Below, piece after piece: positions 43,871-63,499 of a DNA stretch of 64,000 bases (positions within the stretch are counted from its first letter, which is position 1; every line of letters starts with the position of its first letter). Source of the DNA: an uncultured virus (IMG/VR IMGVR_UViG_3300008120_010307) (taxonomy: Duplodnaviria > Heunggongvirae > Uroviricota > Caudoviricetes); the IMG/VR virus record IMGVR_UViG_3300008120_010307; one strand, given 5' to 3'. Below the pieces are notes generated by a model that worked only from the letters and a program-made list of their open reading frames with translations, ran no database searches and was not told the origin of the DNA. A program made the position numbers and the translations under genes.

Positions 43871-44489
43871 ATTGTCTATACAATATTTTTTTATCGAAGC
43901 CCGCATCTGATAGTAATTTTAAAAGGTATTTTCTTTGGGCTACCGACGAATCCTTTATAAATAAACAATTTGTTTTCTTGTTGTCATAGTAAAATTTACT
44001 GACACAATCCAAAAACCTCTCAGCATCAGATTTATTTTTTACTGAAAATATTTTGAATTCCAAATTCTCTTGTAAAACAATTTTATTATTCAACGAGTAT
44101 AACATTTTCATTTCATTACCAACCATGTAAGTTTTAATGAATTTATCGAATGATATTTTGATTGATTTTTTTATGTCGTAAATTTCTTCCTCTTTTTTTA
44201 TTTTTGAAATCTTTATAAATTTCAAATTTTCATCTTCTAATTTGACCTTTTTATTCCTTCCAAATTGGTCTGTCAAATAAGTTGGTGACATTTGACTTTT
44301 AGTTTTTTCTATGATTGCTAATTCAAATTCACATAGTTTACCACTCTCGAATACCTTCTCAAAAATAATTTTTTCAGATTTTGATATATTTGAATTGAAG
44401 AATTCCTGAGCCTTCGCTAAAGTTTTATATTCCTTTATTATTTTTTTCTTTTTTTTATCCTTGAAAAGAACAATCATATATTGCGACAT
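43851..44489 (-). CDS. Lys-rich hypothetical protein
   Basis: Likely start at MSQYMIVL (44489) or 44477; the longer track ORF would overlap dnaJ. Confidence 0.55.
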   Translation of the reverse strand: MSQYMIVLFKDKKKKKIIKEYKTLAKAQEFFNSNISKSEKIIFEKVFESGKLCEFELAIIEKTKSQMSPTYLTDQFGRNKKVKLEDENLKFIKISKIKKEEEIYDIKKSIKISFDKFIKTYMVGNEMKMLYSLNNKIVLQENLEFKIFSVKNKSDAERFLDCVSKFYYDNKKTNCLFIKDSSVAQRKYLLKLLSDAGFDKKILYRQSTTHPR

Positions 44490-44491
44490 AC

Positions 44492-45409
44492 ATGAAAAAT
44501 TACTACAAATTATTAGAAGTTGAAGAGAATGCTTCAGAAGATGATATAAAAAAGAGTTATAGAAACCTGTCAAAAAAATATCATCCAGACTTGAACCCTC
44601 AAGGGGCGGAGAAATTCAAGGAAATCAATGAAGCATATGAAGTCCTGAGTAACAAGGAAAAAAGAAAGAAATATGATTTTCAGAAATCTAATCCCTACAA
44701 CGGAAGTGAATTTTCGGACTTTTTCGCATCTATGTTTTCGAACCAAAATTTCCAACCACCAAGGAACCATCCAGCACCAGATAAGATTTTGAATCTTCAA
44801 TTGACCCCTTTAGAATCATATTTAGGACAAGAAAAAAATATTCAATATTTCAGGGAACTTCATTGCGATACTTGCGTAGGAACAGGAGGGGACAGGGCAA
44901 TTTGTGGATTATGTGAAGGTACAGGTTTTATTGTGAAAACATTCGGTACAGGATTTTTAGTTCAACAGGTCCGGATGGCATGTCCAAATTGCGAGGGACG
45001 GGGATATAATCTCATAAATAAATGTTATAAGTGTTCAGGTAAAGGTACCTTAGGTAATGCAAATGAAATAAAGATAAACATACCTAAAGGTATTGATAGT
45101 GGACAATTCGTGAGAATACGGGGTATGGGGGACTATAGAAATGGTAATTATGGTGACCTCTTGATTCAGATAGAATTGAAAAGTTCCGAAGGATTCGAAA
45201 AAATGGGTAGTGATTTAGTATATAACCTTTATCTCAATTATGAGGACCTATTGAAGGATAAATATTCAATACCACACCCAGATGGAGAACTTATAGTTCC
45301 CGCTCCGAAAAATTTTGACACTTCGAAGCCTTTGAGGCTTAGGGGTAAGGGATACAGTTCAGGAGACATGTTCATCAAAATACATGTCAAATTTGATAGA
45401 CCTACTTGA
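44492..45409 (+). CDS. dnaJ: DnaJ chaperone (type I)
   Basis: J domain with HPD, four CxxCxGxG repeats, C-terminal domain. Confidence 0.92.
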   Translation: MKNYYKLLEVEENASEDDIKKSYRNLSKKYHPDLNPQGAEKFKEINEAYEVLSNKEKRKKYDFQKSNPYNGSEFSDFFASMFSNQNFQPPRNHPAPDKILNLQLTPLESYLGQEKNIQYFRELHCDTCVGTGGDRAICGLCEGTGFIVKTFGTGFLVQQVRMACPNCEGRGYNLINKCYKCSGKGTLGNANEIKINIPKGIDSGQFVRIRGMGDYRNGNYGDLLIQIELKSSEGFEKMGSDLVYNLYLNYEDLLKDKYSIPHPDGELIVPAPKNFDTSKPLRLRGKGYSSGDMFIKIHVKFDRPT

Positions 45410-45551
45410 AAAAATTTATCAATAGTTTAATAAGAACGTAGTTACCGTAAATTGCTGAAGCTAATATGTAAAAACCGAAAAATAACATCGGAGTTACAGT
45501 CTTGAATAAAGATTTTTTTTTACATTTACTACAACCTTGAGATTCTTCCAT
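45402..45551 (-). CDS. 49-aa CxxC plus TM microprotein (not in ORF track)
   Basis: Manual translation: MEESQGCSKCKKKSLFKTVTPMLFFGFYILASAIYGNYVLIKLLINFFK*. Confidence 0.55.
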   Translation of the reverse strand: MEESQGCSKCKKKSLFKTVTPMLFFGFYILASAIYGNYVLIKLLINFFK

Positions 45552-45561
45552 ATTTATAAGT

Positions 45562-45738
45562 ATGATTTTAGAGCAAATTATTAGGAGGGTCTTGCATCAA
45601 TTTTTAGATGAAAAGGACCAAAATAAATTTAAGAAACCACGTAAATATAGTCAATCGTATTGTAAATCTACACCTTGCTCCAAAATGGGTTTCACTCAGA
45701 AAGCTTCTTGTAGACCCTACAAAAATTGTTATAAGTAA
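45562..45738 (+). CDS. 58-aa four-Cys basic microprotein (not in ORF track)
   Basis: Manual translation: MILEQIIRRVLHQFLDEKDQNKFKKPRKYSQSYCKSTPCSKMGFTQKASCRPYKNCYK*. Confidence 0.6.
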   Translation: MILEQIIRRVLHQFLDEKDQNKFKKPRKYSQSYCKSTPCSKMGFTQKASCRPYKNCYK

Positions 45739-45740
45739 AA

Positions 45741-45771
45741 TTTGCCTTTTTCTTTTTTTTTCATATATTTG
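45741..45771 (+). promoter_or_regulatory. Bacteroidota-type sigma70 promoter
   Basis: TTTG, 19 nt, TATATTTG; ATG at 45776. Confidence 0.7.
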
Positions 45772-45775
45772 ACTT

Positions 45776-46615
45776 ATGCTAAGTTATATAGGTGGAAAAT
45801 CAAAAATTGGTAAATGGATTATTGAGTACTATCTCGAAGACATGGAGACATATGTGGAAACATTCGGGGGAATGTTTTGGTGTTTTTTCAATATGGATTT
45901 AGAAAAATTTCCAAATCTCAAAAGAGTGGTTTACAATGACTTCAATCCTTTGAATTATAATTTGTTCAAATGTGTACAAAATCCCGCTGAATTACAGAGG
46001 GCTTTGGATAACATCCCTGTACAAGAATACGGAACATCACTAACTGATATTAGCTTCAAAGATAGATTCAGAGAATTTCAAACTGAAATATTTTCTTCAG
46101 GTTTTACGATAAATTATCCTGATTATGAAGTTGCAGCAAAATATGTTTATGTTGTAACACAAGTTTTCAGTGGTTCAAAACCCGAAACATCGAGTTTTAT
46201 AGATTTAAAGGGAAAGTACAGGTCTAAATATTTAGCTTTCAGAGATAAGTTGTCAAACCCAAAGTGGGTAGAACATTTCTTGAAGATTACAAATGTAGAA
46301 AACTTAGATTTTCAAGAAGTAATAGAAAAGTATGATTCCCCCTCGACCTACATCTATTTAGACCCACCCTATTGGAAAACTGAAAACTATTATTCGAATC
46401 ATGACTTCGACCGACAGGACCATGAAAGACTCTCTGTAATTTTGAATCAAGTTCAAAGTAAATTTAGTTTATCATACTACGATTTCGATTTATTACATCA
46501 GTGGTATCCTGAATCTACCTTCCGATGGGAAAGAAAAAAATTCGCAAAGGCTGCCGCTGCAAAAAAGGGTACAAAACAAAATTTGGGTGAAGAGCTTTTG
46601 ATTATGAATTATTAG
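45776..46615 (+). CDS. Dam-like (D12 class) DNA adenine methyltransferase
   Basis: YIGGKS, YVETFGG, YNDFN, YLDPPY, LSY, ELLIMNY. Confidence 0.88.
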   Translation: MLSYIGGKSKIGKWIIEYYLEDMETYVETFGGMFWCFFNMDLEKFPNLKRVVYNDFNPLNYNLFKCVQNPAELQRALDNIPVQEYGTSLTDISFKDRFREFQTEIFSSGFTINYPDYEVAAKYVYVVTQVFSGSKPETSSFIDLKGKYRSKYLAFRDKLSNPKWVEHFLKITNVENLDFQEVIEKYDSPSTYIYLDPPYWKTENYYSNHDFDRQDHERLSVILNQVQSKFSLSYYDFDLLHQWYPESTFRWERKKFAKAAAAKKGTKQNLGEELLIMNY

Positions 46616-46657
46616 TTATTTTTACACTTTGATTGTATTTATATTAAAGTTTACTAA

Positions 46658-48010
46658 ATGAGATTCACCAATTTATTGAAGTCCATCATTTTGGAGGCAC
46701 AAGAAAAAATTGATTTTTTGATTGATACTTATGCTAAATCAAAAAAGAAGAAAGATGGTTCAATCAAAAAAGCAAAACTTACACCTAAAGAGTTGTCTAT
46801 CTTAGTTGCGGCTGACCCCGAAACAAATCTTCATAATGTTGAAATTCCAACCTCAGACGTGAAGGAATTGGCTAAAGTTAAAGCAGGACCATACTCTCCG
46901 TGGATTATCAAAAGATATTTGGAATTGAATCAGAATACTGAAATTCCTTATGGTGAATCAGGATATGAAAGAGAATTGAAGACGCTCAAGGATAGATTCA
47001 TGGAGGATTTGTACAAAATTACCGAGGATTTAAAAAAGTTCGATAGATTTAAATCAAGAATTCCTCAAGAACTAAGAGATATCAATAAGTTGACTCCTGA
47101 AAAATTATATGATATCGTAAAAGATTTCGATATAACAATCGCCACTACAACCAAAGCAGAAAGAAAATCTGCACCTGTACATCCTGGTGGGAAATTGGTT
47201 TTTGATTCACCTAATTTGAGAGTGGTTGAAATAACAGACAAAGGAAATTTGGGTAAAGAGGCGGCTTGTTTTTATGGTGGAAATCAACAAGAAACAAGAT
47301 GGTGTACATCAGCACCCGGTCTATCCCATTTTGATTATTATATCGGGAAAGGACCTCTATATGTAGTTTTTGACCCTTCAGACCCGAATGTTTCACCAAC
47401 AACAGGATTACCTGTTGAAAGATTCCAATTATCTTTCGAAACTGACCAATTCATGGACAGACATGACCATTCAATTGATATAATTGAAAAGTTGAATGGT
47501 CCTTGGAAGGAGCTCAAACAAGTGTTCAAACCTAAATTTGCAAGGGGTCTCACAACTGGCGGTACGAAACTTACTATTGATAATTTCAAACATGGTAATG
47601 TTGGTAAATTTGTGGCACTTTATGGTTTGGAGGAACTATTTGAAAGTTTACCTGATACCCTTGATGAAATTGCTATCTCACAAAAATCAGATAAGGGACA
47701 AAACATTGACATCAAGATTCCTGCTTCCATAAAAAGATTTAAAAATATGGAGGTAATATTGTTAGATAATTGTATTAGTTCTTTACCTGATGAAATTTGT
47801 GAACTGAAAGAATTGAAGTTTCTAAGCTTACTCAATAACCCCAACTTAAAAGAACTACCTGACTGTTTGAACAATCTCAAAAATTTGGCCTTCATCGCTC
47901 TTACAGGTAGTCCCAATGTTCGTATTCCTGAGTGGTTAAAGAAGAGAGGTAAAACCATGAGAAAAGACGATAGTAATGGTAATCTTTGGGATTTGGAATA
48001 TGATAAATAA
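46658..48010 (+). CDS. phage protein with C-terminal leucine-rich repeats
   Basis: AACFYG...TRWCTS central domain; LRR-like ILLDNCISSLPDEICELKELKFLSLLNNPNLKELPDCLNNLKNLAFIAL. Confidence 0.7.
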   Translation: MRFTNLLKSIILEAQEKIDFLIDTYAKSKKKKDGSIKKAKLTPKELSILVAADPETNLHNVEIPTSDVKELAKVKAGPYSPWIIKRYLELNQNTEIPYGESGYERELKTLKDRFMEDLYKITEDLKKFDRFKSRIPQELRDINKLTPEKLYDIVKDFDITIATTTKAERKSAPVHPGGKLVFDSPNLRVVEITDKGNLGKEAACFYGGNQQETRWCTSAPGLSHFDYYIGKGPLYVVFDPSDPNVSPTTGLPVERFQLSFETDQFMDRHDHSIDIIEKLNGPWKELKQVFKPKFARGLTTGGTKLTIDNFKHGNVGKFVALYGLEELFESLPDTLDEIAISQKSDKGQNIDIKIPASIKRFKNMEVILLDNCISSLPDEICELKELKFLSLLNNPNLKELPDCLNNLKNLAFIALTGSPNVRIPEWLKKRGKTMRKDDSNGNLWDLEYDK

Positions 48011-48022
48011 TTACTAAATTTG
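47992..48022 (+). promoter_or_regulatory. Bacteroidota-type sigma70 promoter
   Basis: TTTG, 19 nt, TAAATTTG; ATG at 48028. Confidence 0.65.
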
Positions 48023-48027
48023 TTTTT

Positions 48028-48312
48028 ATGAGTGTTGATGTAGAAATCTACATGAATAACATAATCAAATTTTTCAGAAATAATCCTAAGGATTTACAAA
48101 ATCTTGTGCCTCTTCACAAGGAAGATGAGTTTTATAAAAAAATTCGAGAGGTTGCAACTAAAAATTCGTCAGAAGGGAAGGAGATTAGTTTAACTCAAAA
48201 ACAATTATTGGACATTTGCGTTGTAATAAACGGAAAAGAACCCAAACCCGATGAAATTTTGGATGAAAGAGTTTTCATCCCTTCTCCATTTGGTTTTATT
48301 TGTTTGAATTAA
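48028..48312 (+). CDS. hypothetical protein
   Basis: 94-aa ORF. Confidence 0.5.
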   Translation: MSVDVEIYMNNIIKFFRNNPKDLQNLVPLHKEDEFYKKIREVATKNSSEGKEISLTQKQLLDICVVINGKEPKPDEILDERVFIPSPFGFICLN

Positions 48313-48329
48313 AATTTTTCTTATTTTTG
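48299..48329 (+). promoter_or_regulatory. Bacteroidota-type sigma70 promoter
   Basis: TTTG (48299-302), 19 nt, TATTTTTG; ATG at 48336. Confidence 0.6.
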
Positions 48330-48335
48330 TGTCCT

Positions 48336-49967
48336 ATGAATGACACAGTTATCTACAAAAAAGTTTTTCAAAGACATGTTTCGAGAGAAGCCCAAAACTA
48401 TTCCCTCATAGATAGTAACAAAAAAGAATATTACGACGGAGTCCACCCTTTTTTTGATTTTATATCAACATACAGAGACGAAGACACATTTAAGACTAAT
48501 CTTAAAAATCTTTTATTTACAATTATTCAAGACACTGTAACAATTTTGATTGAACAGAAAGAAGAAAAAATTTCTTTAAAAATTTTCCAAAAATCTTTTT
48601 CAAGAAAGGTTGGACTTCAATATTTTAAATTATATAAAAATATAAGGTATGTTACCGTCAACATGAAGTACGGTAATATATATTTTGGTGAAATGAACAA
48701 TTATCAGAATAAGAAAAAAGTCCATAAGAAAGTTCGTTCAAATTTCATCATAAATGATTCTTTCAAAACTTTCAGAACATCACTCAAGAACATAATCAAC
48801 GAATTCAGTGCGGACCAAAACACAGATGTTATAAACGAAGTATCTAGAATTTTTTTGGATAAAATAGACGGAGGCGTTAAAGGATTATCATTTGGAGATA
48901 GACTTTTCAAGTATTATTTAGATAAGAAACAAATAAAATACCCAAATAATTTTCCCTTATATTCAAACTTTCTTATTGGTAATTTCAGAAAAAAATTAAA
49001 AAAATTAGATAATAGATTGGTTGATACCTTCATGTTGATGAATGACATAAACGGAAAAAAATTAAAGAAAGTTCTCCATACTGCTAATCATCTAAATGTA
49101 TCAAACTATAAAGTCGGACTTAAACTATTCGGTTCCGATTGGATAAATCAAGATGAAAAATTATTGAAGGATATATTCAATAATCAAGTTAGTTTGGATT
49201 TGAGTGATAAACAAATATCACAATTTAATTTGCTGATTTGTCCTAAAGAAAAAAAGAGGGTTTTCCTTTTGTTTAAAACATTCAATTCGAATAATGAAAT
49301 TGATGAATGGACACTCAAAGACCACTTCCTTTTCTATATTCAATTGAAAAGTTTTGGGGAAACTGATATTGAGTGGAAATCTACAGATAACTCTGATTTT
49401 TTCAGAGAAGAGCATTTAGATTGGGTCAATAAGTTAGAACATTATAAGAATGGTACTTACAATAGAATTTATCCAAAAATTTATTATGAGGTAATTCAAA
49501 ATTTTCTAATAGGTGATATTCAGTTCTATCCTAAACTTCTCACTAATTCTTCGGAGTATAATAGTGAGAGTTCGATTCAAAGTAACTGTGTCAAAGGTTA
49601 TATTGGTAGAGTGAGTTCTATAATCATTTCACTAAGAAAGAATGATATAGATTCTAATGAAAGACTCACTATCGAATATAGAATTCATTATTTAAAAAAT
49701 TCAGATAAAAGTCATATAGACCGTGTTCAATGTTTGGGGAAATACAATAGCTTACCTGATAGTTCTTGGGATGAGCCTTTGAGAGTCTTGGATTCTCAGG
49801 TGAAAAAATTATTGAACGATTCTAATTTCCCTTTTTACAAACTAACTAAAGAATGTAGTAATGGGGTAAAATTCGAGTCAGATACAATGTTCAATCAGGA
49901 TGGTTATCTTGAATGGACTTACAAAGCTATTGATAATTCAGGTATGTCGGATTATTTTCTGTTTTGA
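48336..49967 (+). CDS. PcfJ-domain protein
   Basis: C-terminal ES..QSNCVKGY...IISLRK...RLTIE...QCLGKYN..P. Confidence 0.65.
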   Translation: MNDTVIYKKVFQRHVSREAQNYSLIDSNKKEYYDGVHPFFDFISTYRDEDTFKTNLKNLLFTIIQDTVTILIEQKEEKISLKIFQKSFSRKVGLQYFKLYKNIRYVTVNMKYGNIYFGEMNNYQNKKKVHKKVRSNFIINDSFKTFRTSLKNIINEFSADQNTDVINEVSRIFLDKIDGGVKGLSFGDRLFKYYLDKKQIKYPNNFPLYSNFLIGNFRKKLKKLDNRLVDTFMLMNDINGKKLKKVLHTANHLNVSNYKVGLKLFGSDWINQDEKLLKDIFNNQVSLDLSDKQISQFNLLICPKEKKRVFLLFKTFNSNNEIDEWTLKDHFLFYIQLKSFGETDIEWKSTDNSDFFREEHLDWVNKLEHYKNGTYNRIYPKIYYEVIQNFLIGDIQFYPKLLTNSSEYNSESSIQSNCVKGYIGRVSSIIISLRKNDIDSNERLTIEYRIHYLKNSDKSHIDRVQCLGKYNSLPDSSWDEPLRVLDSQVKKLLNDSNFPFYKLTKECSNGVKFESDTMFNQDGYLEWTYKAIDNSGMSDYFLF

Positions 49968-50302
49968 TGGATAGACACCAATATATTGTGAATTTAGAGA
50001 GAGATGGTAAATTTTTTTCTAATCTAAAATTTACCATACCTGATTTAACCATTCCTAAAAATTTGAAGGATAAAAGATATTTTCCGGTTTATTCGGAAAG
50101 AATTCTTGGTCCCAATAATAAAACAACCCTCAAAAACTACATATTAAAATCGGCACAAGGATTTTATTTGTGTTTCGATAAGTTGGAAAATGATTCATCT
50201 GAGGTGACTATTTATTTTGAAGAGAGTCAAGATATCGAATTACAATTTTTCGTAAATAATTTTTTAAAAACTTTCAAAAATGCAACAACTAACAACAAAT
50301 GA
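49964..50302 (+). CDS. hypothetical protein
   Basis: 112-aa ORF. Confidence 0.45.
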   Translation: MMDRHQYIVNLERDGKFFSNLKFTIPDLTIPKNLKDKRYFPVYSERILGPNNKTTLKNYILKSAQGFYLCFDKLENDSSEVTIYFEESQDIELQFFVNNFLKTFKNATTNNK

Positions 50303-50606
50303 ACTAAAAGAAAAAATCAATAACAGAGAAAACTTCATATTAGATTTATATGCTACGTGGTGCGGACCCTGTAAAATGATGTTGTTTAATTTAGATAAAT
50401 TAGAGGAGCATTTATCTAAAGAATCTGGAAATACTCCAAAATACGGAATTTATAAATTTGACATTGACTCAGATAGAGAATTCATAATGAGTGAGATGGG
50501 TATCAGAAGCGTACCAACAATCAAAATATTCAAAGAAGGAAAAGAAGTTTTTTCAAAAGCGGGAGTTATGTCTACTCTTGAAGTTCTAAATTTATTACAA
50601 AATTAA
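50280..50606 (+). CDS. trxA: thioredoxin
   Basis: YATWCGPCK, GIRSVPT. Confidence 0.9.
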   Translation: MQQLTTNELKEKINNRENFILDLYATWCGPCKMMLFNLDKLEEHLSKESGNTPKYGIYKFDIDSDREFIMSEMGIRSVPTIKIFKEGKEVFSKAGVMSTLEVLNLLQN

Positions 50607-50609
50607 AAT

Positions 50610-50909
50610 ATGTCAAAATTATCTGTTATAGTTTATACAATGAAGGGATGTCCTCATTGCAAAGACTTCAAAGAGTTATTAGTTAAAGAAGGAATCGAAT
50701 TTCACGATAGAGATATTGATGAATACGAGGAAGAGTATGATATATTTTCCAAAGTAACAGACAACGATATGATACCTGCTTTACTTGTCATAGAGGGAGA
50801 CCTTAAAAAACATGAATCTTTTTTATATGTTCCCGAAAAAAATTACAACGAGCTTACGGAAGCCGTAGATATTATAAGAGGACATCAAAAAAAATTAGGG
50901 ATTATCTAA
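50610..50909 (+). CDS. glutaredoxin-like protein
   Basis: VYTMKGCPHC, MIPA. Confidence 0.8.
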   Translation: MSKLSVIVYTMKGCPHCKDFKELLVKEGIEFHDRDIDEYEEEYDIFSKVTDNDMIPALLVIEGDLKKHESFLYVPEKNYNELTEAVDIIRGHQKKLGII

Positions 50910-51595
50910 ATTGAAATAATTCCTTTTATTTTCTTTTTTAAAAAATCTAAGTCTTTCTCATAAAAATTTAGTTCTTCGTTCCAATTAGATTCGATGACCT
51001 CCTTTTTGAATTTCTGAGCATTGGTATCTACACAATCTAAAAAAAGAGAGTTCAGAGTTTCTGAGACGGTGCCATCTTCCTCTTGAAATAAGATTTCTAT
51101 TTGACCTTTATCTTTTTTTATCGTTAGAAGTAATTTCTCAAAAACTAAATTAGGTGGTATATTGTATACTAGTCTTTTTGCAAAGAAATAAAGAAGTCGT
51201 CCCATTTCCAAAGAATAACCGAATGGAAACTTAGAACTAATGACAAGTTCGTCCGCCATTTCTAAAATTTCTTTTTTGATACTACAATTCTCTGAGTTAT
51301 AAAAAAAGCCTGAAAATTTTTTCACCTCTGATAGTTTACACCCATAGTCAATCAAATCTATGGTATTTAGAAGTTTCTTCTCATTTTTCAAGTCTGGATT
51401 TTTGGTATAAAATTCGTCTTTGACTTTGTTCAAATCTAATATTTCTTTAGAGGTGGTCTTCCCCTTTACAACGTAAAAATTTTCACAATCAACAACCTGA
51501 ATTATAGAATTTTCTTTGAATTGTATTTTAGATAAAATAAACTCTGAGAGAGAATTTACAAAAAATTCACGAGATGTTCTAGATAATATTTTCAT
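50906..51595 (-). CDS. hypothetical protein (weak resemblance to MetK N-terminal fold)
   Basis: 229-aa ORF; NSLSEFIL, VVKGKTTS..ILD, FGYS. Confidence 0.45.
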   Translation of the reverse strand: MKILSRTSREFFVNSLSEFILSKIQFKENSIIQVVDCENFYVVKGKTTSKEILDLNKVKDEFYTKNPDLKNEKKLLNTIDLIDYGCKLSEVKKFSGFFYNSENCSIKKEILEMADELVISSKFPFGYSLEMGRLLYFFAKRLVYNIPPNLVFEKLLLTIKKDKGQIEILFQEEDGTVSETLNSLFLDCVDTNAQKFKKEVIESNWNEELNFYEKDLDFLKKKIKGIISI

Positions 51596-51708
51596 CTTAT
51601 ATTTATTACTTCTTCAATCATAATTAATTTTTGAAAAATAATGAAGACTAACTAATATTTCCAAAACATTTAGTGTATTTGGATATTTATCATTAGTATT
51701 TAAAAAGG

Positions 51709-54700
51709 ATGGGAAAAAATATTTTAATTGTTCCGAGTAATTTCACTGAGAGGACTGCTAACCGTACTCCATTTATAAGTTATGAGGGTACCACGGGTCA
51801 GGTTATTCTGACGGTTACACCTTCAGGTAAAATTAAATTCAGCGGTAATACTGTTGGTGATACAAATTTGATGACAGTAGACCCTGCAAATTCTACAGTT
51901 TCAGTAAACACTATTTTTGTAGGAAATTACCTTGCAATAGGAGGGGTTCAGGTAATAAATGCCACAAACAATTGGATTGGACCCACAACAGGTATAGCTG
52001 GTTCTCAGGGTGCAAAAGGATTCAACGGAAATACAGGTCCTACGGGTGCAATAGGTAACACAGGAGCACAAGGTGCTATTGGTGCTGCAGGCGCCACAGG
52101 ACCTCAAGGTGCTCAAGGTACATTTGGGCCTAAGGGTGCTCAAGGAACTGCTGGAGCACAAGGAAATACGGGTGCTCAAGGTAACAATGGACCCAAGGGT
52201 GCCACAGGAGCACAAGGGTCAGCAGGTGCGCCAGGTAATACAGGTAACCCTGGACCTACAGGACAAAGTGGACACCCTGGTCCACAAGGACCAACGGGAG
52301 CCGTTGGTAATACAGGAGCACAGGGTGCGATTGGGGTTACAGGACCCACAGGTAATACAGGTGCTCAAGGACCTGTAGGACCAACAGGTGGACAAGGTGC
52401 TCAAGGACCACAAGGAGCTCAAGGTCCAAAAGGATTTTCAGGTGCACAAGGTGCAACAGGAAACACAGGTGGAACAGGACCCACAGGAAATACAGGACAT
52501 CCTGGCGCTCAGGGTGCTACAGGAAATCCTGGACCTACGGGTGTCACAGGGTCTCAAGGAGCCGTTGGACCCACCGGTGCTATAGGAGCTCAAGGACCCA
52601 AAGGAGCACAAGGGAATACTGGAAACACAGGGGCACAAGGAGCCACAGGAAATCCTGGTCCACAAGGTTTCACAGGTAATGTTGGTGCGGTAGGGCCCAC
52701 AGGTGCGATTGGTCCAAAGGGACCACAAGGACCTACAGGAAATACAGGTAATGTGGGACCACAAGGTGCCACAGGTACCACAGGCCCAACAGGTGATACA
52801 GGAGCTACAGGACCTGCAGGACCACAAGGTGCTGTGGGACCAAAAGGAGACACAGGTAATACGGGGGCTCAGGGTGCTGTGGGGCCACAAGGAGCAACTG
52901 GTCCGACAGGACTTTCAGGTGCTCAAGGTGCCCAAGGTGGGGTAGGACCGACAGGGGCTACAGGACCACAAGGAGCTCAAGGACCTGCGGGTAATACGGG
53001 TCATTCTGGTGCACAAGGTGCTACAGGACCAACAGGGCCTGGAGGTAACACAGGTGCTCAAGGGGCGGTTGGACCGAAAGGGGCTACAGGACCTCAGGGA
53101 GCTCAAGGACCCGCAGGTGGTACAGGTAACACAGGGGCTCAGGGTGCCACAGGACCACAAGGTTCACAAGGGGCGGGTGGTGGAACAGGTCATCCAGGTG
53201 CCCAAGGTCCCCAAGGAGCGATAGGACCACAAGGTTCACAAGGAGCCACAGGACACACTGGTGCTCAAGGCCCACAAGGTGCCACAGGACCACAAGGCTC
53301 ACAAGGGGCTACAGGACATCCTGGTGCCCAAGGTAGTCAGGGTGCGGCCGGACCAAAAGGACCTAATGGATTCACAGGTCATCCTGGAGCGCAAGGACCG
53401 CAAGGTTCAGCGGGAGCAACGGGTGCTCAAGGTCAGACAGGTCATCCGGGGGCACAAGGTGCAGGTGGACCTACTGGGTCTCAAGGACAAGGGGGTGGTA
53501 CAGGACATCCTGGAGCTCAAGGTGCCATAGGACCCAAAGGACCTCAAGGACCTACAGGTGCTACTGGCCATCCTGGTGCTCAAGGTGCTGGTGGAGGTAC
53601 TGGTAACGAGGGGGCACCAGGTTTCACAGGACATCCAGGTGCACAAGGTGCTACAGGACCAGGAGGTAGTCCGGGTGCTCAGGGTTCACAAGGTTCCCAA
53701 GGACCTCAAGGAGCTCAAGGAAATACCGGTCCGACCGGCGTACCGGGAGCTACGGGGCATCCTGGTGCTCAAGGAGCGGTCGGTCCAACTGGCCCACAAG
53801 GTCCGTCAGGTAATACAGGACATCCTGGTGCACAGGGAGCAACGGGTCCTACAGGACCTCAAGGAAATACAGGTGCCACGGGTGCTATTGGACCCCAAGG
53901 TGCGGGAGGTGCCACAGGCTCACAAGGGGCTGTAGGACCTCAAGGAGCAACTGGAGCCACAGGAGCCCAAGGTCCACAAGGTCCAGGTGGTCCTACAGGA
54001 CCTGGCGGGGCACAAGGTGCTCAAGGAGGAGGAGGTGCCACAGGACCTCAAGGACCACAAGGTCCAAAGGGACCTCAGGGTGCTACAGGTCCTACAGGGG
54101 GTCCTGGTCCAACTGGACCACAAGGTCCTCAGGGACCAACAGGAGCACCTGGACCTACAGGTGCCACAGGACCACAAGGTCCTACAGGTGGTCAAGGTAC
54201 ACAAGGCTCATTAGGTGCAACAGGAGGGCAGGGTGCTCAAGGTTCCCAAGGAGCTGTTGGACCTGGAGGTGTAACATGTCAACTGAATAGTATTATTGCT
54301 CTTACAGGAAGTAGAAACCCATGTGTAGGTGTTTGTAATATCACTGTACCCAACGTTTATCCATACACTCAAACTGCTTACACAGCCACACAAAACAAAT
54401 ATTTCGATGCTACGAATTGTTCAAATGGTACTTGTGATTGGAATACTTATAACTGGGAACAATGGAATAGTGCATGTTATTCATTAAACGCCACTTGTGG
54501 TAATGGTACCTATCAGCAGGCTTGTGCTTATTCTGACGTGAAACTTAAAACAGGTATTGAAACCTTGAAAGATTCTCTTATAAAAATATTGGAAATAGAA
54601 ACTGTTGAGTATGATTGGAACGAAAAAAATTGGGGTACCAAAGAAGAGTATGAATATTTTGCTCAGATGGGAAGATTACATCAGATAGGTCTAATTGCAC

Positions 54701-54870
54701 AAAACGTAAGAATTCATTTCCCTGAAGCTGTTGGAATCGGTCCTGATGGATATTATTACATTGACTACAAGAAATTAAATTCTGTTGTAGTTGAAGGTAT
54801 AAAAGAACAACAAGTATTTATTGAAGAGATAACTAAACAAGTAGACGAATTAGAAATTAAATTGAGATAA
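51709..54870 (+). CDS. collagen-like fibre protein A with Cys-rich tip and S74 intramolecular chaperone
   Basis: G-X-Y from 51991 to 54276 (254 triplets), then an 8-Cys domain, then SDVKLK..I...W...IGLIAQ...FPEAV...IDY. Confidence 0.9.
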
Positions 54871-57854
54871 TGCCATCTAATGTAATTATATATCCTACCG
54901 GTAGAACGTGGAACACTGACCCTCATTTTATTTTTGATGATGGAACTAATAAATTACAATTCAACGTTTTAACTGACGCAATAAGTCTGTCTGCTGGGTC
55001 AATTTCAAATAATTTTGTAATTGGTACAAAAGGTTCAGACAATGGTGTCACAACCTCAGGGGCTTCCGCACAGTCACTATATTTCAACGCCTCACAATTC
55101 ATAGGTTCTGGAGGTGTTTGGGTCGGACCAACTGCCGGTATCGCTGGTGCTCAGGGAGCTCAAGGTGCTCAGGGAGCCCAAGGTGGTCAGGGAGCTCAAG
55201 GAGCTCAAGGTGCAAATACAGGAGCTCAAGGTGCTACAGGTGCCCAAGGAGCAACAGGCGCACAAGGTGCGGCAAACACAACACAAGGTGCTCAAGGTAC
55301 AATTGGGTCTCAAGGAGCTCAGGGTGCCACAGGAGCTCAGGGTGGAAATACGGGTGCTCAAGGAGCCACAGGAGCTCAAGGTAACCAAGGAGCTCAAGGT
55401 GCTCAAGGAGGAACAGTTGGAGCTCAGGGTGCTCAGGGTGGTCAGGGAGCTCAAGGTGCTCAAGGTGCTCAAGGTGCAAACACAGGTGCTCAGGGTGCGA
55501 CAGGTCCCCAAGGAGCCCAAGGAGCGGTAGGTGCTACAGGAGGAGTTCAAGGTGCTCAAGGTGCCGTCGGTGCCACAGGTGATTTAGGTGCTCAGGGAGC
55601 TCAAGGAGCCAATACCGGAGCCCAAGGTGCTCAAGGTGCACAGGGAACTCAAGGTGCACAAGGTGCTCAGGGAGGAAATACTGGTGCACAAGGTGCTCAG
55701 GGTACTCAGGGTACACAAGGTGCTACAGGTGCTCAAGGAGGAGTACAAGGTGCTCAAGGTGCTATAGGTACTACAGGACCACAAGGTGCTCAAGGGGCCC
55801 AAGGGGCAAACACAGGAGCTCAAGGTGCTCAAGGTGGTCAAGGTGCTCAAGGAGCTCAAGGTGCTCAAGGAGGAGTACAAGGTGCTCAAGGGGCTACAGG
55901 TCCTACGGGGGTACAAGGAGCACAAGGTGCACAAGGAGGAGTACAAGGAGCACAAGGTGCAACAGGACCTCAAGGAGCTCAAGGGGCTCAGGGATTACAA
56001 GGTGGACTTCAAGGTGCCCAAGGTGCAACAGGTGCTCAAGGTGCACAAGGTTCTACAGGTGCTCAAGGAGGTACCCAAGGAGCTCAAGGTGCCACAGGAC
56101 CACAAGGTGCACAAGGAGCAATAGGAGCTCAAGGAGGAGTACAAGGTGCTCAGGGTGCAACAGGAGCAGCGGGAGCTCAAGGTGCTCAAGGAGCCCAAGG
56201 TGCAAATACAGGTGCTCAAGGCGCCACAGGACCTCAAGGTGCTCAGGGGGCGACAGGAGCCCAAGGGGGTGTACAAGGTGCTCAAGGCGCCACAGGTCCT
56301 CAAGGTGCTCAAGGTGCTCAGGGGGCTCAAGGTGCAAATACAGGAGCTCAGGGTGCTACAGGTCCTCAAGGTGCTCAAGGTGCTCAGGGAGCCCAGGGTG
56401 CCAGTCCAGGTGCTCAGGGCGCTCAAGGTCCAAAAGGACCTCAAGGTGCTCAAGGAGCCCAAGGTGGAAGTGCAGGTGCCACGGGTGCGCAAGGTGCAAC
56501 AGGTCCTCAAGGAGCTCAAGGTGCCCAAAGTGGTATAACAGGACAGGCAGGAGCTCAGGGTGCTACAGGTCCCCAAGGGGCACAAGGTGCTCAAGGTGGA
56601 AGTGCCGGTGCTACAGGAGCAGTCGGTGCACAAGGAGCTACAGGAGCACAAGGAGCCCAAGGTGCTAATCAAGGAGCACAAGGTGCTACGGGTGCTACAG
56701 GAGCTCAAGGTGCTCAAGGTGCTCAAGGTGCTAATCAAGGAGCCCAAGGTGCGACAGGTCCACAAGGTGCTCAGGGTTCACAGGGTGCACAAGGTGCTAA
56801 TCAGGGAGCACAGGGGGCTCAAGGAGCTCAAGGTGCTCAAGGTTCTCAGGGAGCACAAGGAGCCAATCAGGGTGCACAAGGTGCTACAGGTCCACAAGGT
56901 GCACAAGGTGCAATTGGACCAAATAATACGACACAAGGTGCTCAAGGTGCTCAGGGAGGTCAAGGTACTCAGGGAAGTCAAGGAGCACAGGGTGCTAACC
57001 AAGGCGCTCAAGGGGCACCTGGAGTTCAAGGAGCTCAAGGAGCACAAGGTGCACAGGGTGCTAATCAAGGGGCTCAGGGAGCACCTGGAGTTCAAGGAGC
57101 TCAAGGTGCTCAAGGTTCTCAAAGTGCTACTTCGGGAGCACAAGGTTCTACAGGACCTCAAGGTGCTCAAGGTTCTACAGGACCCGGTCCTGGTCCGCAA
57201 GGAGCCCAAGGTCCACAAGGATTGACTGGAGGTGGAGGGAACACAGGTGCACAAGGGTCCCAAGGAGCTACAGGAGCCACGGGTCCTACAGGTGCTCCTG
57301 GTGGAACAGGAGCCACAGGTGCTCAAGGAGCCACAGGATTTGCTGGAAGCACTCAGGGTGCTCCAGGTGTACCAGGACCACAGGGGGCTCAAGGTCCGAC
57401 AGGTGTTGGTGGTGCCACAGGCCCAACAGGCCCAACAGGTTTCAAGGGGAATACAGGCCCAACAGGCCCAACAGGTGCCACAGGTGCTCAGGGAGCACAA
57501 GGCGCTAAGTCAGATAAAAGATTAAAAGATAATATAGTTGAATTCAAAGAACCTCTCACCCGTCTGAAACAAATCCAAGGTGTTAAATTTACTTGGGACC
57601 ATGAACATCCTAAAATTAAATTTCATAAGCACCTGAATGCTAAAGAAGCGTTCACAGGTGATACTTATGGATTCATAGCTCAAGATGTAGAAAAAGTATT
57701 TCCTGAGATTGTTGACACTGACCCAACTGATGGATACAAATCTATGGATTATGGACTCTTGGTTAGTTTAGCCTTCGCATCAATTAAAGAGAATCAAAAA
57801 AGAATATTGTCAGTGAAAGATAGAATAAATAGATTAAAACAAGTAGTGAACTAA
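54870..57854 (+). CDS. collagen-like fibre protein B with periodic interruptions and S74 chaperone
   Basis: Repeat region 55137-57509 with a 22-aa period; SDKRLKDNI...GVKFTW...[16 protein letters not shown]. Confidence 0.9.
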
Positions 57855-60800
57855 TGGCATCATACGTAGTATATTCAGGGACGAGTTATCTAAATGCGTG
57901 TAATTCTGTGGCATCACAGACTATTTATACACCGTGTCCATCACTAAGTGGAGGTTGTGTAGTCTATACAGATGCAGGTTATACTAATGTTATTACTTTC
58001 TCTCCATTATTACCTAATTTATATCTAAAGGATTCTGTTGATACAACGGTTTGGAAGATAAATAGGACAGGAACTGTCACGGAGGTTAGAAAATGTACTG
58101 AATTTTCAGGTGATGAAAATATAATTGTTTATCCTGATGGAGCCAATTTTCAACTTATAGATTCTGGAGGAACTGCCACTAACTGGTATATGGAGAATGG
58201 TGAGTTGAAATTTGGAACTTTAACTTCCACTTTAGCAAGAATAAGTACTTCCTATCCAAACCTCAGAGTCAGTGGGGGGTCAATAACACTTACTAACAAA
58301 CTTGCAAATGCCTCGGGAGATTTAATAAATTCAACAGGATGGGTCGGAGCTAAATTACCTCAAGGTCCAACGGGTGCTCAAGGTTCACAAGGTTCTACTG
58401 GTGCTCAAGGAGCTCAAGGGGGTCAAGGAGCACAGGGTACCCAAGGTTCAACAGGTGCCCAAGGTTCTCAGGGTGCTCAAGGGGGACAAGGTGCTCAAGG
58501 TGCTCAAGGGTCACAAGGACCTACAGGTGCACAAGGTTCACAAGGTGGTCAAGGTTCACAAGGCTCACAAGGTTTTACAGGTGCTCAGGGTTCACAAGGA
58601 GCTCAAGGAGGACAAGGTGCTCAGGGTTCACAAGGAACTTTGGGACCCACAGGAGCTCAAGGTTCTCAAGGTGGTCAAGGAGCCCAAGGAGCCCAAGGTT
58701 CAACAGGTGCTCAAGGTTCGCAAGGAGCACAGGGTGGACAGGGCGCTCAAGGTTCACAAGGGGCTAAAGGTCTCACAGGTGCTCAAGGGGCACAAGGTGG
58801 ACAAGGTGCCCAAGGTGCTCAAGGTTCCCAAGGTACAACAGGAGCCCAAGGTTCCCAAGGGGGACAAGGTGCTCAAGGTGCTCAAGGCGCAGTTGGTCCT
58901 ACAGGTGCTCAAGGAGCTCAGGGTGGACAAGGGGCTCAAGGAGCTCAAGGGGCTGTCGGTCTCACAGGAGCTCAAGGAGCTCAAGGTGGGCAAGGTGCTC
59001 AAGGAGCACAAGGGGCTCTCGGTCCTACAGGAGCTCAAGGTTCCCAAGGTGGACAGGGTGCTCAAGGAGCACAAGGTTCACAAGGTTTAACAGGTGCGCA
59101 AGGGTCCCAAGGTGGTCAAGGAGCTCAAGGAGCTCAGGGAGGACAAGGTGCTCAAGGTGCCCAAGGTCCTAAAGGTCCACAAGGTGCTCAAGGAGCCCAA
59201 GGTGCTCAAGGTTCAACAGGAGCCCAAGGTTCCCAAGGTGGAACAGGAGCCCAAGGTGCTCAAGGTTCAACAGGAGCCCAAGGTTCACAAGGTTCACAAG
59301 GTGGAACAGGAGCCCAAGGTGCTCAAGGTTCAACAGGAGCCCAAGGTTCACAAGGTTCCCAAGGAGGACAAGGTGCCCAAGGGGCTCAAGGTACAACAGG
59401 TGCCCAAGGAGCTCAAGGAGCTACAGGAGGTCAAGGTGCTCAGGGTTCTCAAGGACCCACAGGAGCCCAAGGTTCTCAAGGTGCCGGAGGAGGACAAGGT
59501 GCACAAGGAGCTCAAGGTATAGTTGGAGCCCAAGGTGCTCAAGGTGGAGGTGGAGGACAGGGTGCACAAGGAGCACAAGGAACGACAGGTCCCGTAGGTG
59601 CACAAGGTTCACAAGGTGGGCAAGGTGCTCAAGGTTCCCAAGGTGCACAAGGTGCCACAGGAGCTCAAGGTTCTCAGGGCGTCGCCGGAGCTCAAGGTGC
59701 TCAAGGTGCTCAAGGAGCTGTTGGTAGTCAAGGTTCACAAGGAGGACAGGGTGCACAAGGAGCTCAAGGTTCACAAGGAGCTCAAGGTGCAACTGGTCCT
59801 GGTGGCGGACAAGGTGCTCAGGGAGCACAAGGAGCCACAGGTTCACAAGGTGCTCAAGGTGGAGGTGGTGGACAAGGTGCCCAAGGTGCTCAAGGGCCCG
59901 TCGGTTCACAAGGTTTTCAAGGAACAACTGGAGGTCAAGGTGCACAAGGTGCGCAAGGACCTACTGGACCTACAGGTATCACAGGACCTAAAGGGGGTCA
60001 AGGTGCACAAGGTGCTCAGGGAGGACAAGGTGCACAGGGACCACAAGGTCATATCGGTGCAAACGGTGCAACTGGTGTTCCTGGTCCTATTGGTCCCAAA
60101 GGACCTACGGGTCCTACGGGAGGTCAAGGTGCTCAAGGAGCTCAAGGACCTGGTGGTGCTCAAGGGGCTCAAGGTCCTACGGGAGGTCAAGGTGCTCAAG
60201 GAGCTCAAGGACCTGGTGGTGCTCAAGGGGCTCAAGGTCCTACGGGAGGTCAAGGTGCCCAAGGTCCCAAAGGTCCAATAGGTGGACAAGGTTCTCAAGG
60301 TCCCACAGGGGCTCAGGGTACCGCCGGAGGACAAGGTTCTCAAGGCGGTGGTGGTGCCCAAGGTGCTCAAGGTGCTCAAGGTCCGCAAGGAGGCCAAGGT
60401 GCTCAAGGCGGTGGTGGTGCCACAGGAGCTCAAGGACCTCAGGGGGGTCAAGGTGCCCAAGGACCACAAGGTGGTCAAGGTCCACAAGGTGCACAAGGTG
60501 CAACCGGTCCAAATGGTTTACAAGGTGCTCAAGGTGCACAAGGTACCACTGGTTCTGACCTAAGATTAAAAAAGGACGTAAAAGAAATACAATCCCCACT
60601 AGAAAAAGTCCTGAAATTGAGAGGTGTTTCATTCTATTGGAATAAATTAAATGATGAAACATCCCAATCAGGTAAACATGATATTGGATTCATTGCCCAA
60701 GAAATAGGTCATATATTACCTGAATTGGTTTTCAAGAAAAACACCGAGAACGCATATTTCATGGTAAAATATGCTGAAGTAATAGCTGTTTGTTTAGAAG

Positions 60801-60889
60801 CCATTAAAGAACAATCCTTGATTTTGGAATCTAAAGAAATAAAACTTGATGAGTTAGAGACAATAGCCAAGGAAAGAGGACTTATTTAG
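57854..60889 (+). CDS. collagen-like fibre protein C with S74 chaperone
   Basis: G-X-Y from 58364 to 60550 (243 triplets); SDLRLKKDV...LRGVSFYW...[14 protein letters not shown]. Confidence 0.9.
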
Positions 60890-61737
60890 ATTTCGGTCTT
60901 TTGAATTAAATCTCTTATTTCGAAACCAGTTTGGTATAACATCGACAGAAATTTTTTCCAAATTTCTGGGTTATACTTTTTAATCAATTCAACATAATAA
61001 ATGTAGTAAGGTTCTTCTCCTCCTCTCTCAGACATAAAATCTGCAAGTTGAGGATTATCGGTGGTTAAATTTTTGAAAACTCTGATAAGGTCATTTCCCA
61101 AATGTTCATCATTTATTCTAAATAAAATATCCTTCGAGAGTTTAGATAGTGGGTCACCCTTGGCAAAATAATTGATTATATTTTTTAATGATTTTTCTAA
61201 AAATTGTAGGTTTTCAATTTTTCTGTTTCTTTTAACTCTTCTTTCAAATTCGAGAACCAAACCCTCCAAAAATTCATTTGAAATTGCAAAAAATTCTATT
61301 GGATGACCCCAATAATCTTTATCTGATTTCTCATTGTAAGTCACCATATATTTGGGACTAAACAAATGAGATTGTGTTGGGTCACTGGCATGTATCATTT
61401 CATGATATAGTGTAAGATAAAGTGTTTTTTTTGACTCGTAGTGTTTTGGATTTACTTCGATTACAATATCTGCCGGGTCGACTGACTTTTGAGGTTTTGT
61501 ACCCATCTGACCCATGTAGGGTAGTCTTGGGTTTACCACGACTCTAGCTAAACCCTCTACTCCATCGGCTAATTTAAAAGGAATGACATCAACTAGTTCT
61601 TTTCCTTTATAAGGTTTATTTCTATCAGACCATAATTTTTCTGTGACGGATTTCATTCTATCTCTCACATCATCAGAAAATTTATATCTCTGTGCCTCCA
61701 ATATTAGATTGGTGATTATATTTCTTATTTTAGTCAT
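60886..61737 (-). CDS. HExxH zinc-metalloprotein-like protein
   Basis: [11 protein letters not shown]...Y..HPIEFFA; likely start at [16 protein letters not shown]. Confidence 0.6.
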
Positions 61738-62516
61738 TTTTGTAAATCTACCCCCCAATTTATTGGAATCTCTTTAAGACTTATTTTACTTACGAATTTA
61801 TCAAAAGCGTTCTTGAAGGTCACCTGAGCTTTCTTGATGTCTTTAATTCTTGCCATATCAGGTAAAATCCCTGTAGATAAATATGCTTGAATCTCATCAT
61901 CAATTACATTTTCACCATAACCCATGTTTTTGATTTTTCTTGTCATGGAATCTAATGTAGATGGATTTAGGTTATTGATATTATAAGATTGTAAGTTTTT
62001 ATAGTTAGGTGAACTATACCACAACCCATGTGCTAGTTCATGATAGATTAAACTCAAGTCCTCTCCATCTGTTTGGTCGATACCGATTAAATAAAAATTG
62101 TTGTTACCTGTTTTTTCTTTTATGGTATCAATAATTGAAAACATAATAAGGTCAAAATAATTTATGTCAGGAATCACTTTTATACACGATTCGATTGAAT
62201 CACACGGTAAATTATAACCAGACCAATCTTCATGATATGTGAAAATGTCATTCTTGGTTTTTTCCTTATAGAATTTTACAAAGTCAACCCACTTGAAGCC
62301 TTGTCCTCTGAATGTCTCTGAGTCTGACTCATAAAATTCCTGATAACGCATGAAAACCCGGGCACGTAGTTTGTCATCTTTGATTACAACGGCAAAAATC
62401 TTTGGGAATATCTCAAACAATCTAATCTTAGATAGAATGTTTTTAATATTCTTCGGGGGGTTTTTAGGTGGACTTTGAACCCTCTCATGAATGGTATTTA
62501 TACTTTTATTATTCAT
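61734..62516 (-). CDS. HExxH-containing hypothetical protein
   Basis: FMRYQEFYES, DWSGYNLP, IYHELAHG, DDEIQAY. Confidence 0.6.
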   Translation of the reverse strand: MNNKSINTIHERVQSPPKNPPKNIKNILSKIRLFEIFPKIFAVVIKDDKLRARVFMRYQEFYESDSETFRGQGFKWVDFVKFYKEKTKNDIFTYHEDWSGYNLPCDSIESCIKVIPDINYFDLIMFSIIDTIKEKTGNNNFYLIGIDQTDGEDLSLIYHELAHGLWYSSPNYKNLQSYNINNLNPSTLDSMTRKIKNMGYGENVIDDEIQAYLSTGILPDMARIKDIKKAQVTFKNAFDKFVSKISLKEIPINWGVDLQK

Positions 62517-63499
62517 CAGAAAAAATCACTGAAATACATGTTTATATTTTTATCGACCTCTCTACTATCGGGGTAGTCAGAAATCCTTGGGTACAAACAA
62601 TCATTGTTTTCGTCTAATATTCTAATAAAATACGCTTCATCTTCAATTGCGTTTGAATACTTGTTATGTAAGAAATCGTAAATTTGTCCTTCGAAATCCT
62701 TTATTTTCATTTTGTATTGATACTTCATAGTATCTTTTTTATAAGGATGTGGGGATGATATCCACTCACCCTCATAGAAATAATCACCCAATTCATTCAT
62801 TATATTTTTATAAATTTGACTCTCATATGCTGAATTGTAAGCGTCGGAGTGTATTCTATACAAATCACCTTCAATATCCAAATATTTTTTCATCAATTCA
62901 TTGAATGTATCTCTATCATCCACAATTCTGGCTATGTTTGATTCGTTTACTTCAACGTAGTCTGGATGACCTTGTTCAGAGGCAATCAATTCTAGTTCCT
63001 CAGTCTCTGTTTCTACCCGTTCATTTTTTAAATCATCTATAATCTTCTTGTATAAAGTTTTCAAATTTTCTTGATTTAATTCCTCAACCACGTCTCTATG
63101 AACATCATCAGTTGTTTCTGAATAATATTCAAACCAATCATTATCCTCACCCAAGATATTCTCAATGGTGTCTCGTGAAAAATCTCTACTACTATCACAA
63201 AAAAGTGTTGCTAATTCTTTTCTGTCGTCCAAAATCAAATAAGCATCACCTTTTTCATCAATTTGAACATCTCCTAAAATGCGATTCATGTATTTGTAAA
63301 ACTCTTGTTTATCATTCTCCATGGTCCAAATGAAATATTGGTTTTGCCATTCTCTACTGTCATTGGCTAATGGGTCTAATAAATGAAAAAGTTTTTTCGA
63401 TTTAAGCACCGCAAAAAAATCATCATAATCATTGTTGAAGTATTTCAACGCCCATGTGTCACCATCATTAAAATCACTTATAATTTCTTGCCAATTCAT
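62516..63499 (-). CDS. acidic hypothetical protein
   Basis: 327-aa D/E-rich ORF preceded by TATTTATATGT on the minus strand. Confidence 0.55.
   Translation of the reverse strand: MNWQEIISDFNDGDTWALKYFNNDYDDFFAVLKSKKLFHLLDPLANDSREWQNQYFIWTMENDKQEFYKYMNRILGDVQIDEKGDAYLILDDRKELATLFCDSSRDFSRDTIENILGEDNDWFEYYSETTDDVHRDVVEELNQENLKTLYKKIIDDLKNERVETETEELELIASEQGHPDYVEVNESNIARIVDDRDTFNELMKKYLDIEGDLYRIHSDAYNSAYESQIYKNIMNELGDYFYEGEWISSPHPYKKDTMKYQYKMKIKDFEGQIYDFLHNKYSNAIEDEAYFIRILDENNDCLYPRISDYPDSREVDKNINMYFSDFF

Follow-up and report, generated by a model that had tools for sequence, protein, structure and literature searches.

Collagen heterotrimers with a defined chain register are, to our knowledge, known only from animals, and they have been hard to engineer. 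Among the closest described systems, C1q builds each triple helix from three paralogous chains (A, B and C), and a discontinuity of the Gly-X-Y repeat in its A and C chains only is held responsible for the bend or branching of the stalk (PMC11463431). Type IV and other interrupted non-fibrillar animal collagens are likewise heterotrimers, with many Gly-X-Y breaks that are thought to confer flexibility (10.1101/2020.09.27.315929). On the viral side, collagen-like S74 fibres of phages and prophages, for example the prophage collagens of Escherichia coli O157, also combine a collagen repeat with a Peptidase_S74 (S74) domain (PMC3368898). They are products of single genes with short collagen runs and are taken to be homotrimers. 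Finally, polyglycine-II bundles such as the snow-flea antifreeze protein (2PNE) and the gp38 adhesin of phage S16 (6F45) contain Gly-rich tripeptide repeats broken at regular short intervals. Here we describe three collagen-like genes, referred to as A, B and C, that lie on the plus strand at positions 51709-60889 of a 64,000-nucleotide stretch of DNA (the window) from an uncultured virus of the Caudoviricetes (IMG/VR record IMGVR_UViG_3300008120_010307). All evidence on the fibre that they would encode is computational.

The phage fibre may work most like C1q, yet it is not a member of the C1q family. While C1q has a single discontinuity, the phage fibre would have about 30 on a lattice, and while C1q is an animal protein with a trimerising gC1q head, the phage chains carry S74 domains: for all three proteins, Pfam searches (E≤0.01) returned Collagen and Peptidase_S74 as the sole matches, without a gC1q head. 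Compared to the prophage S74 collagens, the trio stands out by three coupled genes of ~250 triplets each, with matched triplet counts and a shared lattice. In type IV-like collagens the breaks are irregular in spacing and size and often affect all chains, whereas in the trio the shift is strictly one residue long, affects one chain and follows a fixed lattice. The 2PNE and 6F45 proteins fold as compact antiparallel bundles of short helices, while the evidence for the trio points to a long parallel rod in which B has two unbroken partners. The titles and abstracts that we surveyed on phage collagen heterotrimers, jumbo-phage collagen fibres, periodic interruptions in bacterial collagen and prokaryotic heterotrimers described no such system, and neither 'phage' nor 'periodic' occurs in the text of PMC11923368. 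What appears to be new in our analysis is the placement of A, B and C on one lattice, and the trio would be best placed among the phage collagen-like fibres.

Results

A periodic frame shift in the collagen region of gene B

A first-pass annotation of the window had reported one extra residue after every seventh Gly-X-Y triplet within 55137..57509, repeated 30 times without slip and with 32 insertions in total, in a chain paired with two uninterrupted ones. These coordinates are exactly those of the Gly-X-Y region of B (amino acids 90-880, nucleotides 55137-57509), and the count is essentially right: a greedy parse returned 32 net +1 shifts and 31 frames of 22 residues for B, the last 30 of which run from amino acid 118, as well as 254 and 244 unbroken triplets for A and C, respectively. 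The triplet runs of B (9,6,7x18,6,8,7x4,6,7,7,6,6,18,17) are split by 32 interruptions, 29 of which consist of one residue (T, Q, V, P, A or S) and three of four residues (NTTQ twice, SATS), the latter being equivalent to a Gly-less triplet plus one residue; the net frame shift is +1 at 32/32. The distance from shift to shift (n=31) is 7 triplets in 27 cases, 6 in two, 8 in one and 18 in one, and two insertions (T148 and T218) that come one triplet early leave the 22-residue frame unbroken. At the nucleotide level, Tandem Repeats Finder reported a period of 66 nucleotides between 55158 and 57173 (30.5 copies, 70% matches, 3% indels, score 1054). Prediction of B residues 96-359 with AlphaFold2 (AF2) without an alignment was uninformative, with a predicted local distance difference test score (pLDDT) of 33.7 and no secondary structure. 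We also observed that several B interruptions read N-x-T (NTTQ in the window; NVT and NIT in the homologous locus L001).

The spacing is conserved in homologous loci

Searches with the N-terminal domain of B identified 4 loci among viral contigs, and those with an alignment of this domain found 50 metagenome and 7 more viral loci (each designated by L and a number). At 90% identity, 48 B N-terminal domains from these loci form 19 clusters. Insertions are most often 7 triplets apart in 13 of them and 14 apart in three, while the other three comprise L109, in which spacings of 6 and 7 alternate, L102-104, with mainly 6 in a short, much-interrupted protein, and the irregular L121. Inspection of homologues had been set beforehand as a refutation test of the first-pass annotation; the period is conserved, so that the annotation is not refuted by it. 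As a control, we inspected 80 loci (L005-L084) retrieved via the S74 domain of B, 7 of which contain a total of 9 open reading frames (ORFs) with at least 40 triplets. The 7+1 pattern was found in 0 of these 9 ORFs, and therefore belongs to the A/B/C trio rather than to S74 collagens generally.

Some loci depart from the three-gene layout. L123 (4948-12748) has two collagen genes only; the first has a C-type junction to the helix, and the second combines a B-type N-terminal domain with C-type repeats and a C-type C-terminus and lacks periodic insertions. Globular domains of ~90-230 residues occur inside the collagen region of A (L140:6933-10004; L096:1268-4060) or of B (L117:2944-5166).

The period could in principle be a by-product of unequal crossing-over of a 66-nucleotide unit that carried an extra codon by chance, in which case the spacing would be unselected. 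Copy number indeed varies in whole units (the B chain of L115, for example, is about two periods shorter than that of L001), and as the three genes are paralogous, a shared unit size could be ancestral. However, the 31 B units show a mean pairwise nucleotide identity of 0.68 (n=465 pairs), and the fraction of identical codons at identical residues is 0.501, versus 0.490 expected from codon usage alone, and yet the net number of indels among the units is 0. Synonymous sites between the units are thus saturated and the array is not a recent amplification: the spacing has been kept while synonymous sites were randomised. Nor does this explanation fit with the observations, detailed below, that the three genes change length together and that the period changes jointly to 13 in L109, and it leaves the complementarity of B and C breaks unexplained. 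We consider it improbable.

A, B and C share one lattice

To compare the chains we used lattice coordinates, defined as triplets counted from the start of the collagen region with the extra residues of B ignored. When the chains are written in rows of seven triplets, A and C prove to be periodic as well as B: the rows are marked by GGQ or another GGx in C, by GxT-GHP-GAQ (or GNT-GNT-GAQ in other lineages) in A, and by GAQ-GAQ-G[AG]x followed by the extra residue in B. In most of the 14 loci examined, autocorrelation is strongest at lags of 7/14/21/28 in each of the three chains, with no clear period in the second chain of L132 and in the short L103. In L109 the top lags are 13/26 in all three chains; the lags have shifted jointly, and the period therefore co-varies among the chains.

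The phase between the chains is fixed as well. In 9/11 loci the GGx triplet of C (Gly in the X position) lies two triplets before the B insertion, at 28/32 sites in L086 (which is near-identical to the window), 29/32 in L001, 15/15 in L002, 19/19 in L131, 14/17 in L004, 11/13 in L116, 6/10 in L132, 9/9 in L135 and 7/9 in L096; the C offset differs from -2 in L141 and L109. The C phase survives local slips in the spacing of B (to 6, 4 or 3, as in L002). For A, 17/32 triplets at offset -1 from the B insertions belong to the GHP/GNT class. In the window family, one lattice site, at triplets 185-191, departs from the regular pattern in A, B and C alike.

Breaks of B and C are complementary

Lattice sites that lack a B insertion are matched in C by a one-residue deletion (of the G-A-S-P-T-G type, i.e. 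GAS-PT-GAQ) at the same coordinate. In L116, B skips site 101, and the sole -1 break of C is at 101; in L132, B skips sites 66 and 94, and the two breaks of C are at 66 and 94. All six sites skipped by B in L096 are filled exactly by C deletions, and in L100 a C break at 80 fills a gap of B. In L135 the insertions of B (24, 31, 38, 52, 66, 80, 94, 108 and 122) and the deletions of C (45, 59, 73, 87, 101, 116 and 128) unite into the 7-triplet lattice, with two sites off by one. Judged by these sequences, the conserved quantity is a one-residue surplus of B over C per lattice site, reached by either route.

Triplet counts are matched among the chains

We then compared the lengths of the collagen regions, with a two-residue break counted as a triplet that lacks one residue. 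The A/B/C totals are 254/253/252 in L086 and L088 (both near-identical to the window), 270/270/269 in L001, 144/143/142 in L002, 158/157/156 in L131, 142/142/141 in L135 and 174/175/178 in L141, and loci with two complete chains have 141/140, 140/139, 199/197 and, in L123, 361/362 triplets. Across 14 loci, pairs of chains from the same locus (n=30) differ by a median of 1 triplet, and 23/30 differ by at most 4, while the counts span 139-362. When chains were re-paired at random the median difference was 50, and 0/100000 shuffles reached the observed value. Residue lengths are not matched, as B is longer by the number of its insertions (e.g. 810/841/804 in L001). In L140, where A is split by two globular inserts, its collagen pieces add up to 139 triplets (5+23+111), compared to 140 in B and 139 in C.

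Triplet counts that agree to within one in 140-360, a period that the chains share and change together, a constant phase, breaks of two genes that fill one lattice and coupled translation are difficult to account for other than by residue-by-residue contact of the chains, as in an ABC triple helix. The first-pass pairing of B with A and C is thus strongly supported by the shared period, the fixed phase offset, the matched triplet counts and the complementary B(+1)/C(-1) sites. From this sequence logic and its conservation across loci we infer that A, B and C are probably three paralogous chains of one heterotrimeric, in-register collagen-like fibre with a local wedge or hinge at each lattice site. 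Consistent with association of the chains, complex prediction for the three N-terminal domains with 10 triplets each gave a score of 0.80, compared to 0.15 for the best of 3 controls (at least 68% contact agreement and partner pLDDT of at least 80). The 0.80-level mark is reached by 116/157 solved complexes and by 2/215 mismatched pairs, counts that are rough for a three-chain job with its own alignments.

Several observations weigh against this interpretation. Because the chains are paralogous, complex prediction cannot separate ABC from AAA, BBB and CCC. The totals are mismatched in L004 (131/160/145), L100 (185/206) and L096 (A 152, B 139, C 166), and in L115 and L094 B has 256-257 triplets versus 269-270, about two periods short. 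In the window itself, C has 244 triplets versus 254 in A and 253 in B, and 8 fewer than the C chains of L086:12964-16089 and L088:12982-16095 (252), whose B N-terminal domains are 97-100% identical to that of the window; the missing triplets belong to the aperiodic part after triplet 210, and the shortfall reflects either natural variation or the collapse of a repeat. Repeat collapse in metagenome assembly is a possible cause of mismatched totals. At site 66 of L100, a B insertion and a C deletion occur together. Lastly, 2/3 irregular C sites coincide with irregular B sites in the window (a hand count with no significance test), and such co-located irregularities could be inherited from an ancestor gene.

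The main rival explanation is that each chain trimerises with itself, giving three separate fibres (A3, B3 and C3) that are kept at equal length and perhaps packed in register side by side, with the breaks of B3 acting as hinges. All S74-bearing fibres that we know of are homotrimers, and in the trio each chain has its own S74 domain. Homotrimers are also the rule for prokaryotic collagen-like proteins (PMC8968730), and the loci with mismatched totals would be in keeping with such fibres. By contrast, separate fibres need no match to one triplet in 140-360, nor would the collagen pieces of A be expected to still sum to the B total across globular inserts as they do in L140. Moreover, with three extra residues per site, the lattice of B3 would be shifted relative to that of C3, yet the B and C sites lie on one triplet lattice, and the replacement of a missing B insertion by a C deletion at the same coordinate is unaccounted for. 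We therefore regard separate homotrimers as unlikely, though as the foremost competitor of the ABC fibre.

The first-pass annotation had also proposed that B alone folds as a polyglycine-II helix bundle in which the extra residue marks turns, as in the snow-flea antifreeze protein or the adhesin of phage S16. The B region is Gly- and Ala-rich, poor in Pro (4.2%) and made of regular 21-residue segments, and such bundles do occur in phage fibres (6F45, as cited in PMC11463431). A compact bundle would, however, not require the triplet total of B to track those of A and C from ~140 to ~360. In addition, B homologues start with 24 unbroken triplets and end with 17-39, spacings of 14 occur in which C supplies the alternate sites, and one residue is probably too short for a turn. 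This alternative is disfavoured, and we hold it to be very improbable.

End domains of the three chains

The features of the trio in the window are compiled in Table 1. All three proteins match the Pfam families Collagen (PF01391; A 309 bits, 3e-94; B 217 bits, 1.7e-65; C 227 bits, 1.1e-68; cut-off 27.2) and Peptidase_S74 (PF13884; cut-off 22), the latter at residues 942-1008 of A (36.2 bits, 7.3e-9), 881-948 of B (49.0 bits, 7.7e-13) and 901-959 of C (52.7 bits, 5.4e-14). A Ser and a Lys are conserved at the start of the S74 domain (SDVKLK in A, SDKRLK in B, SDLRLK in C), a motif with a role in self-cleavage. The solved chain nearest to the S74 domain of B is 6f45_A, annotated as 'Long tail fiber distal subunit' of phage S16 (E 5e-6).

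Table 1. Coordinates of the collagen trio and its elements in the window.
Feature	Position	Strand	Basis
Gene A, 1053 amino acids: N-terminal beta domain, 254 uninterrupted triplets, Cys-rich domain, S74 chaperone domain	51709..54870	+	ORF list, Pfam, parse
Collagen region of A, with 7-triplet marker GxT-GHP-GAQ or GNT-GAQ ending at the lattice site	51991..54276	+	rows of seven triplets
TAATG stop/start overlap of A and B	54868..54872	+	sequence
Gene B, 994 amino acids: N-terminal beta domain, collagen region with interruptions, S74 domain immediately following the final triplet	54870..57854	+	ORF list, parse, Pfam
N-terminal domain of B, amino acids 1-89, all-beta, paralogous to its counterparts in A and C	54870..55136	+	AF2, hhalign
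Periodic array of B, amino acids 96-777: 31 frames of 22 residues (7 triplets + 1)	55155..57200	+	parse, Tandem Repeats Finder
Peptidase_S74 domain of B, starting SDKRLK	57510..57713	+	Pfam
TAATG stop/start overlap of B and C	57852..57856	+	sequence
Gene C, 1011 amino acids: N-terminal extension, beta domain, 244 uninterrupted triplets, S74 domain	57854..60889	+	ORF list, parse, Pfam
Collagen region of C, GGx (GGQ or GGT) at each 7th triplet over triplets 7-210, exceptions 91, 147 and 189	58364..60559	+	rows of seven triplets

Alignment with hhalign revealed that the N-terminal domains of the chains are homologous (B versus A 99.8%, B versus C 98.5%), and A, B and C are therefore paralogues. 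AF2 modelled the domain of B (19-row alignment) with a pLDDT of 74.7 and 8 strands. A fold search of this model against the PDB gave 0 matches at E≤0.001, the best (0.43) being a fragment of the phi92 spike, and in the protein atlas both the B N-terminal domain (0.87) and the Cys-rich domain of A (0.79) stayed below the lead level. A search for protein homologues with B residues 1-97 returned 188 candidates, 0 of them at E≤0.001, and comparison of the B N-terminal domain with the phage collection (tblastn, 1e-3) gave no match.

The Cys-rich domain, ~85 residues between the collagen region and the S74 domain of A (54277-54531, amino acids 857-941), occupies the same place in all A homologues and has no equivalent between these two regions in B and C. 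Because it would be the sole globular part of the fibre tip after self-cleavage of S74, it is a candidate for the receptor-binding part. The C chain of the window has ~85 additional residues at its N-terminus, several of them Cys (amino acids 1-85, 57854-58108). These residues are absent from the C homologues, in which the protein starts with VAENIIITP and translation apparently initiates at a GTG overlapping the end of B.

Genomic context

The stop/start overlaps between A and B and between B and C indicate that the three genes are translationally coupled, which speaks for the ABC fibre. GC content is ~31% across the AT-rich window and raised in the 52-60 kb stretch because of the Gly, Ala and Gln codons of the trio. 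The gene order in the window (45776-63499) is conserved in L104, L118, L126, L131, L140 and L141: a Dam-like methylase gene, 2 genes of unknown function, a thioredoxin-like gene, 1 minus-strand gene, A-B-C and 3 minus-strand genes of unknown function, the last three being all that L123 keeps after its collagen genes. No Pfam or PHROG match among the neighbours of the trio assigns the fibre to tail or head.

The remaining gene content of the window is phage-like (a sigma-70 factor, SbcCD-like nuclease subunits, a DnaG-type primase, DnaJ, a Dam-type methylase and small thioredoxin- and glutaredoxin-like proteins), and a search for tRNA genes in the window found none. Within the phage collection the window is related to very large uncultured phages only, and at low similarity: the DNA at 44000-51700 gave weak short matches only, including two uncultured phages of 635-642 kb, and the best match of the SbcC-like protein has 26% identity and lies in 735-kb uncultured phages.

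Two other regions deserve mention. A cluster at 4314-14261 encodes a glycosyltransferase, DUF6625, an FkbM/FtsJ-type methyltransferase and a HAD-nucleotidyltransferase, and its products could modify Thr-rich fibres. At 14558-24724, where GC content is higher, there are three large ORFs (1621, 701 and 748 amino acids), the second of which (701 amino acids) has an SprB repeat and a weak PHROG match to 'virion structural protein'; these ORFs may encode other structural or fibre proteins.

Discussion

The features of A, B and C suggest how the fibre might be built. A triple helix of ~220 nm would be fixed to the virion by the homologous N-terminal beta domains, the presumed anchor, while the S74 intramolecular-chaperone domain of each chain would presumably trim itself off at the conserved Ser. 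The chains would run in register on a common lattice with a site about every 7 triplets (~6 nm), where an extra residue in B would meet a Gly in X two triplets upstream in C and the GxT-GHP/GNT-GAQ marker in A, with a one-residue deletion in C substituting for the B insertion in some lineages. Each site could then act as a local wedge or hinge, leaving the fibre kinked, curved or jointed at regular intervals.

The first-pass annotation had reasoned from the 7-triplet repeat of the collagen helix that all insertions would fall on the same face. The repeat itself is correct, as a helix of 7/2 symmetry accommodates 7 triplets within 2 turns and truly repeats every 6 nm, yet imino-poor sequences tend towards 10/3 symmetry with a repeat of 8.58 nm (PMC3933592). 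Because the chains are imino-poor (12.5% Pro in A, 4.2% in B and 4.4% in C, i.e. 4-12%) and because spacings of 6 and 7 alternate in L109, an arrangement of all insertions on one face is possible but not established.

Since a C deletion can replace a B insertion, a wedge (that is, a difference in path length) is favoured over a mere bulge, and a curl of the fibre is a plausible hypothesis, although regular flexible joints without net curvature fit the data equally well. The more specific idea of a programmed collagen spring, in which the surplus of B over C per 7 triplets wedges the heterotrimer so that the ~220-nm rod curls into a coil, we rate as doubtful. The axes of collagen chains are 4.5-5.5 Å apart, and by simple geometry, if the surplus went wholly into curvature, the coil would have a radius of ~8-12 nm and 3-4 turns. 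Such a radius would be about the size needed to wrap a flagellum or a similar filament. Flagella are wrapped by the ~220-nm fibre of phage chi and by the helical fibres of PBS1 (PMC9266447). Triple helices without superhelical twist have been reported as well, with the suggestion that they may occur near discontinuities (PMC11463431).

If the fibre were indeed such a spring, it would represent the first natural heterotrimeric collagen outside animals and the first example of a curvature specified by chains of unequal length. In this phage family, three small domains appear to take care of chain selection, register and length matching, and a strict lattice of one-residue differences in length appears to be written into the helix. 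The family would supply an ABC system that is natural, free of hydroxyproline and suited to expression in bacteria, along with ~20 natural variants of different length (~70-360 triplets) and lattice (7, 14 with C deletions, or 6/7), and with it a direct test of how insertions in a single chain affect the shape of the triple helix.

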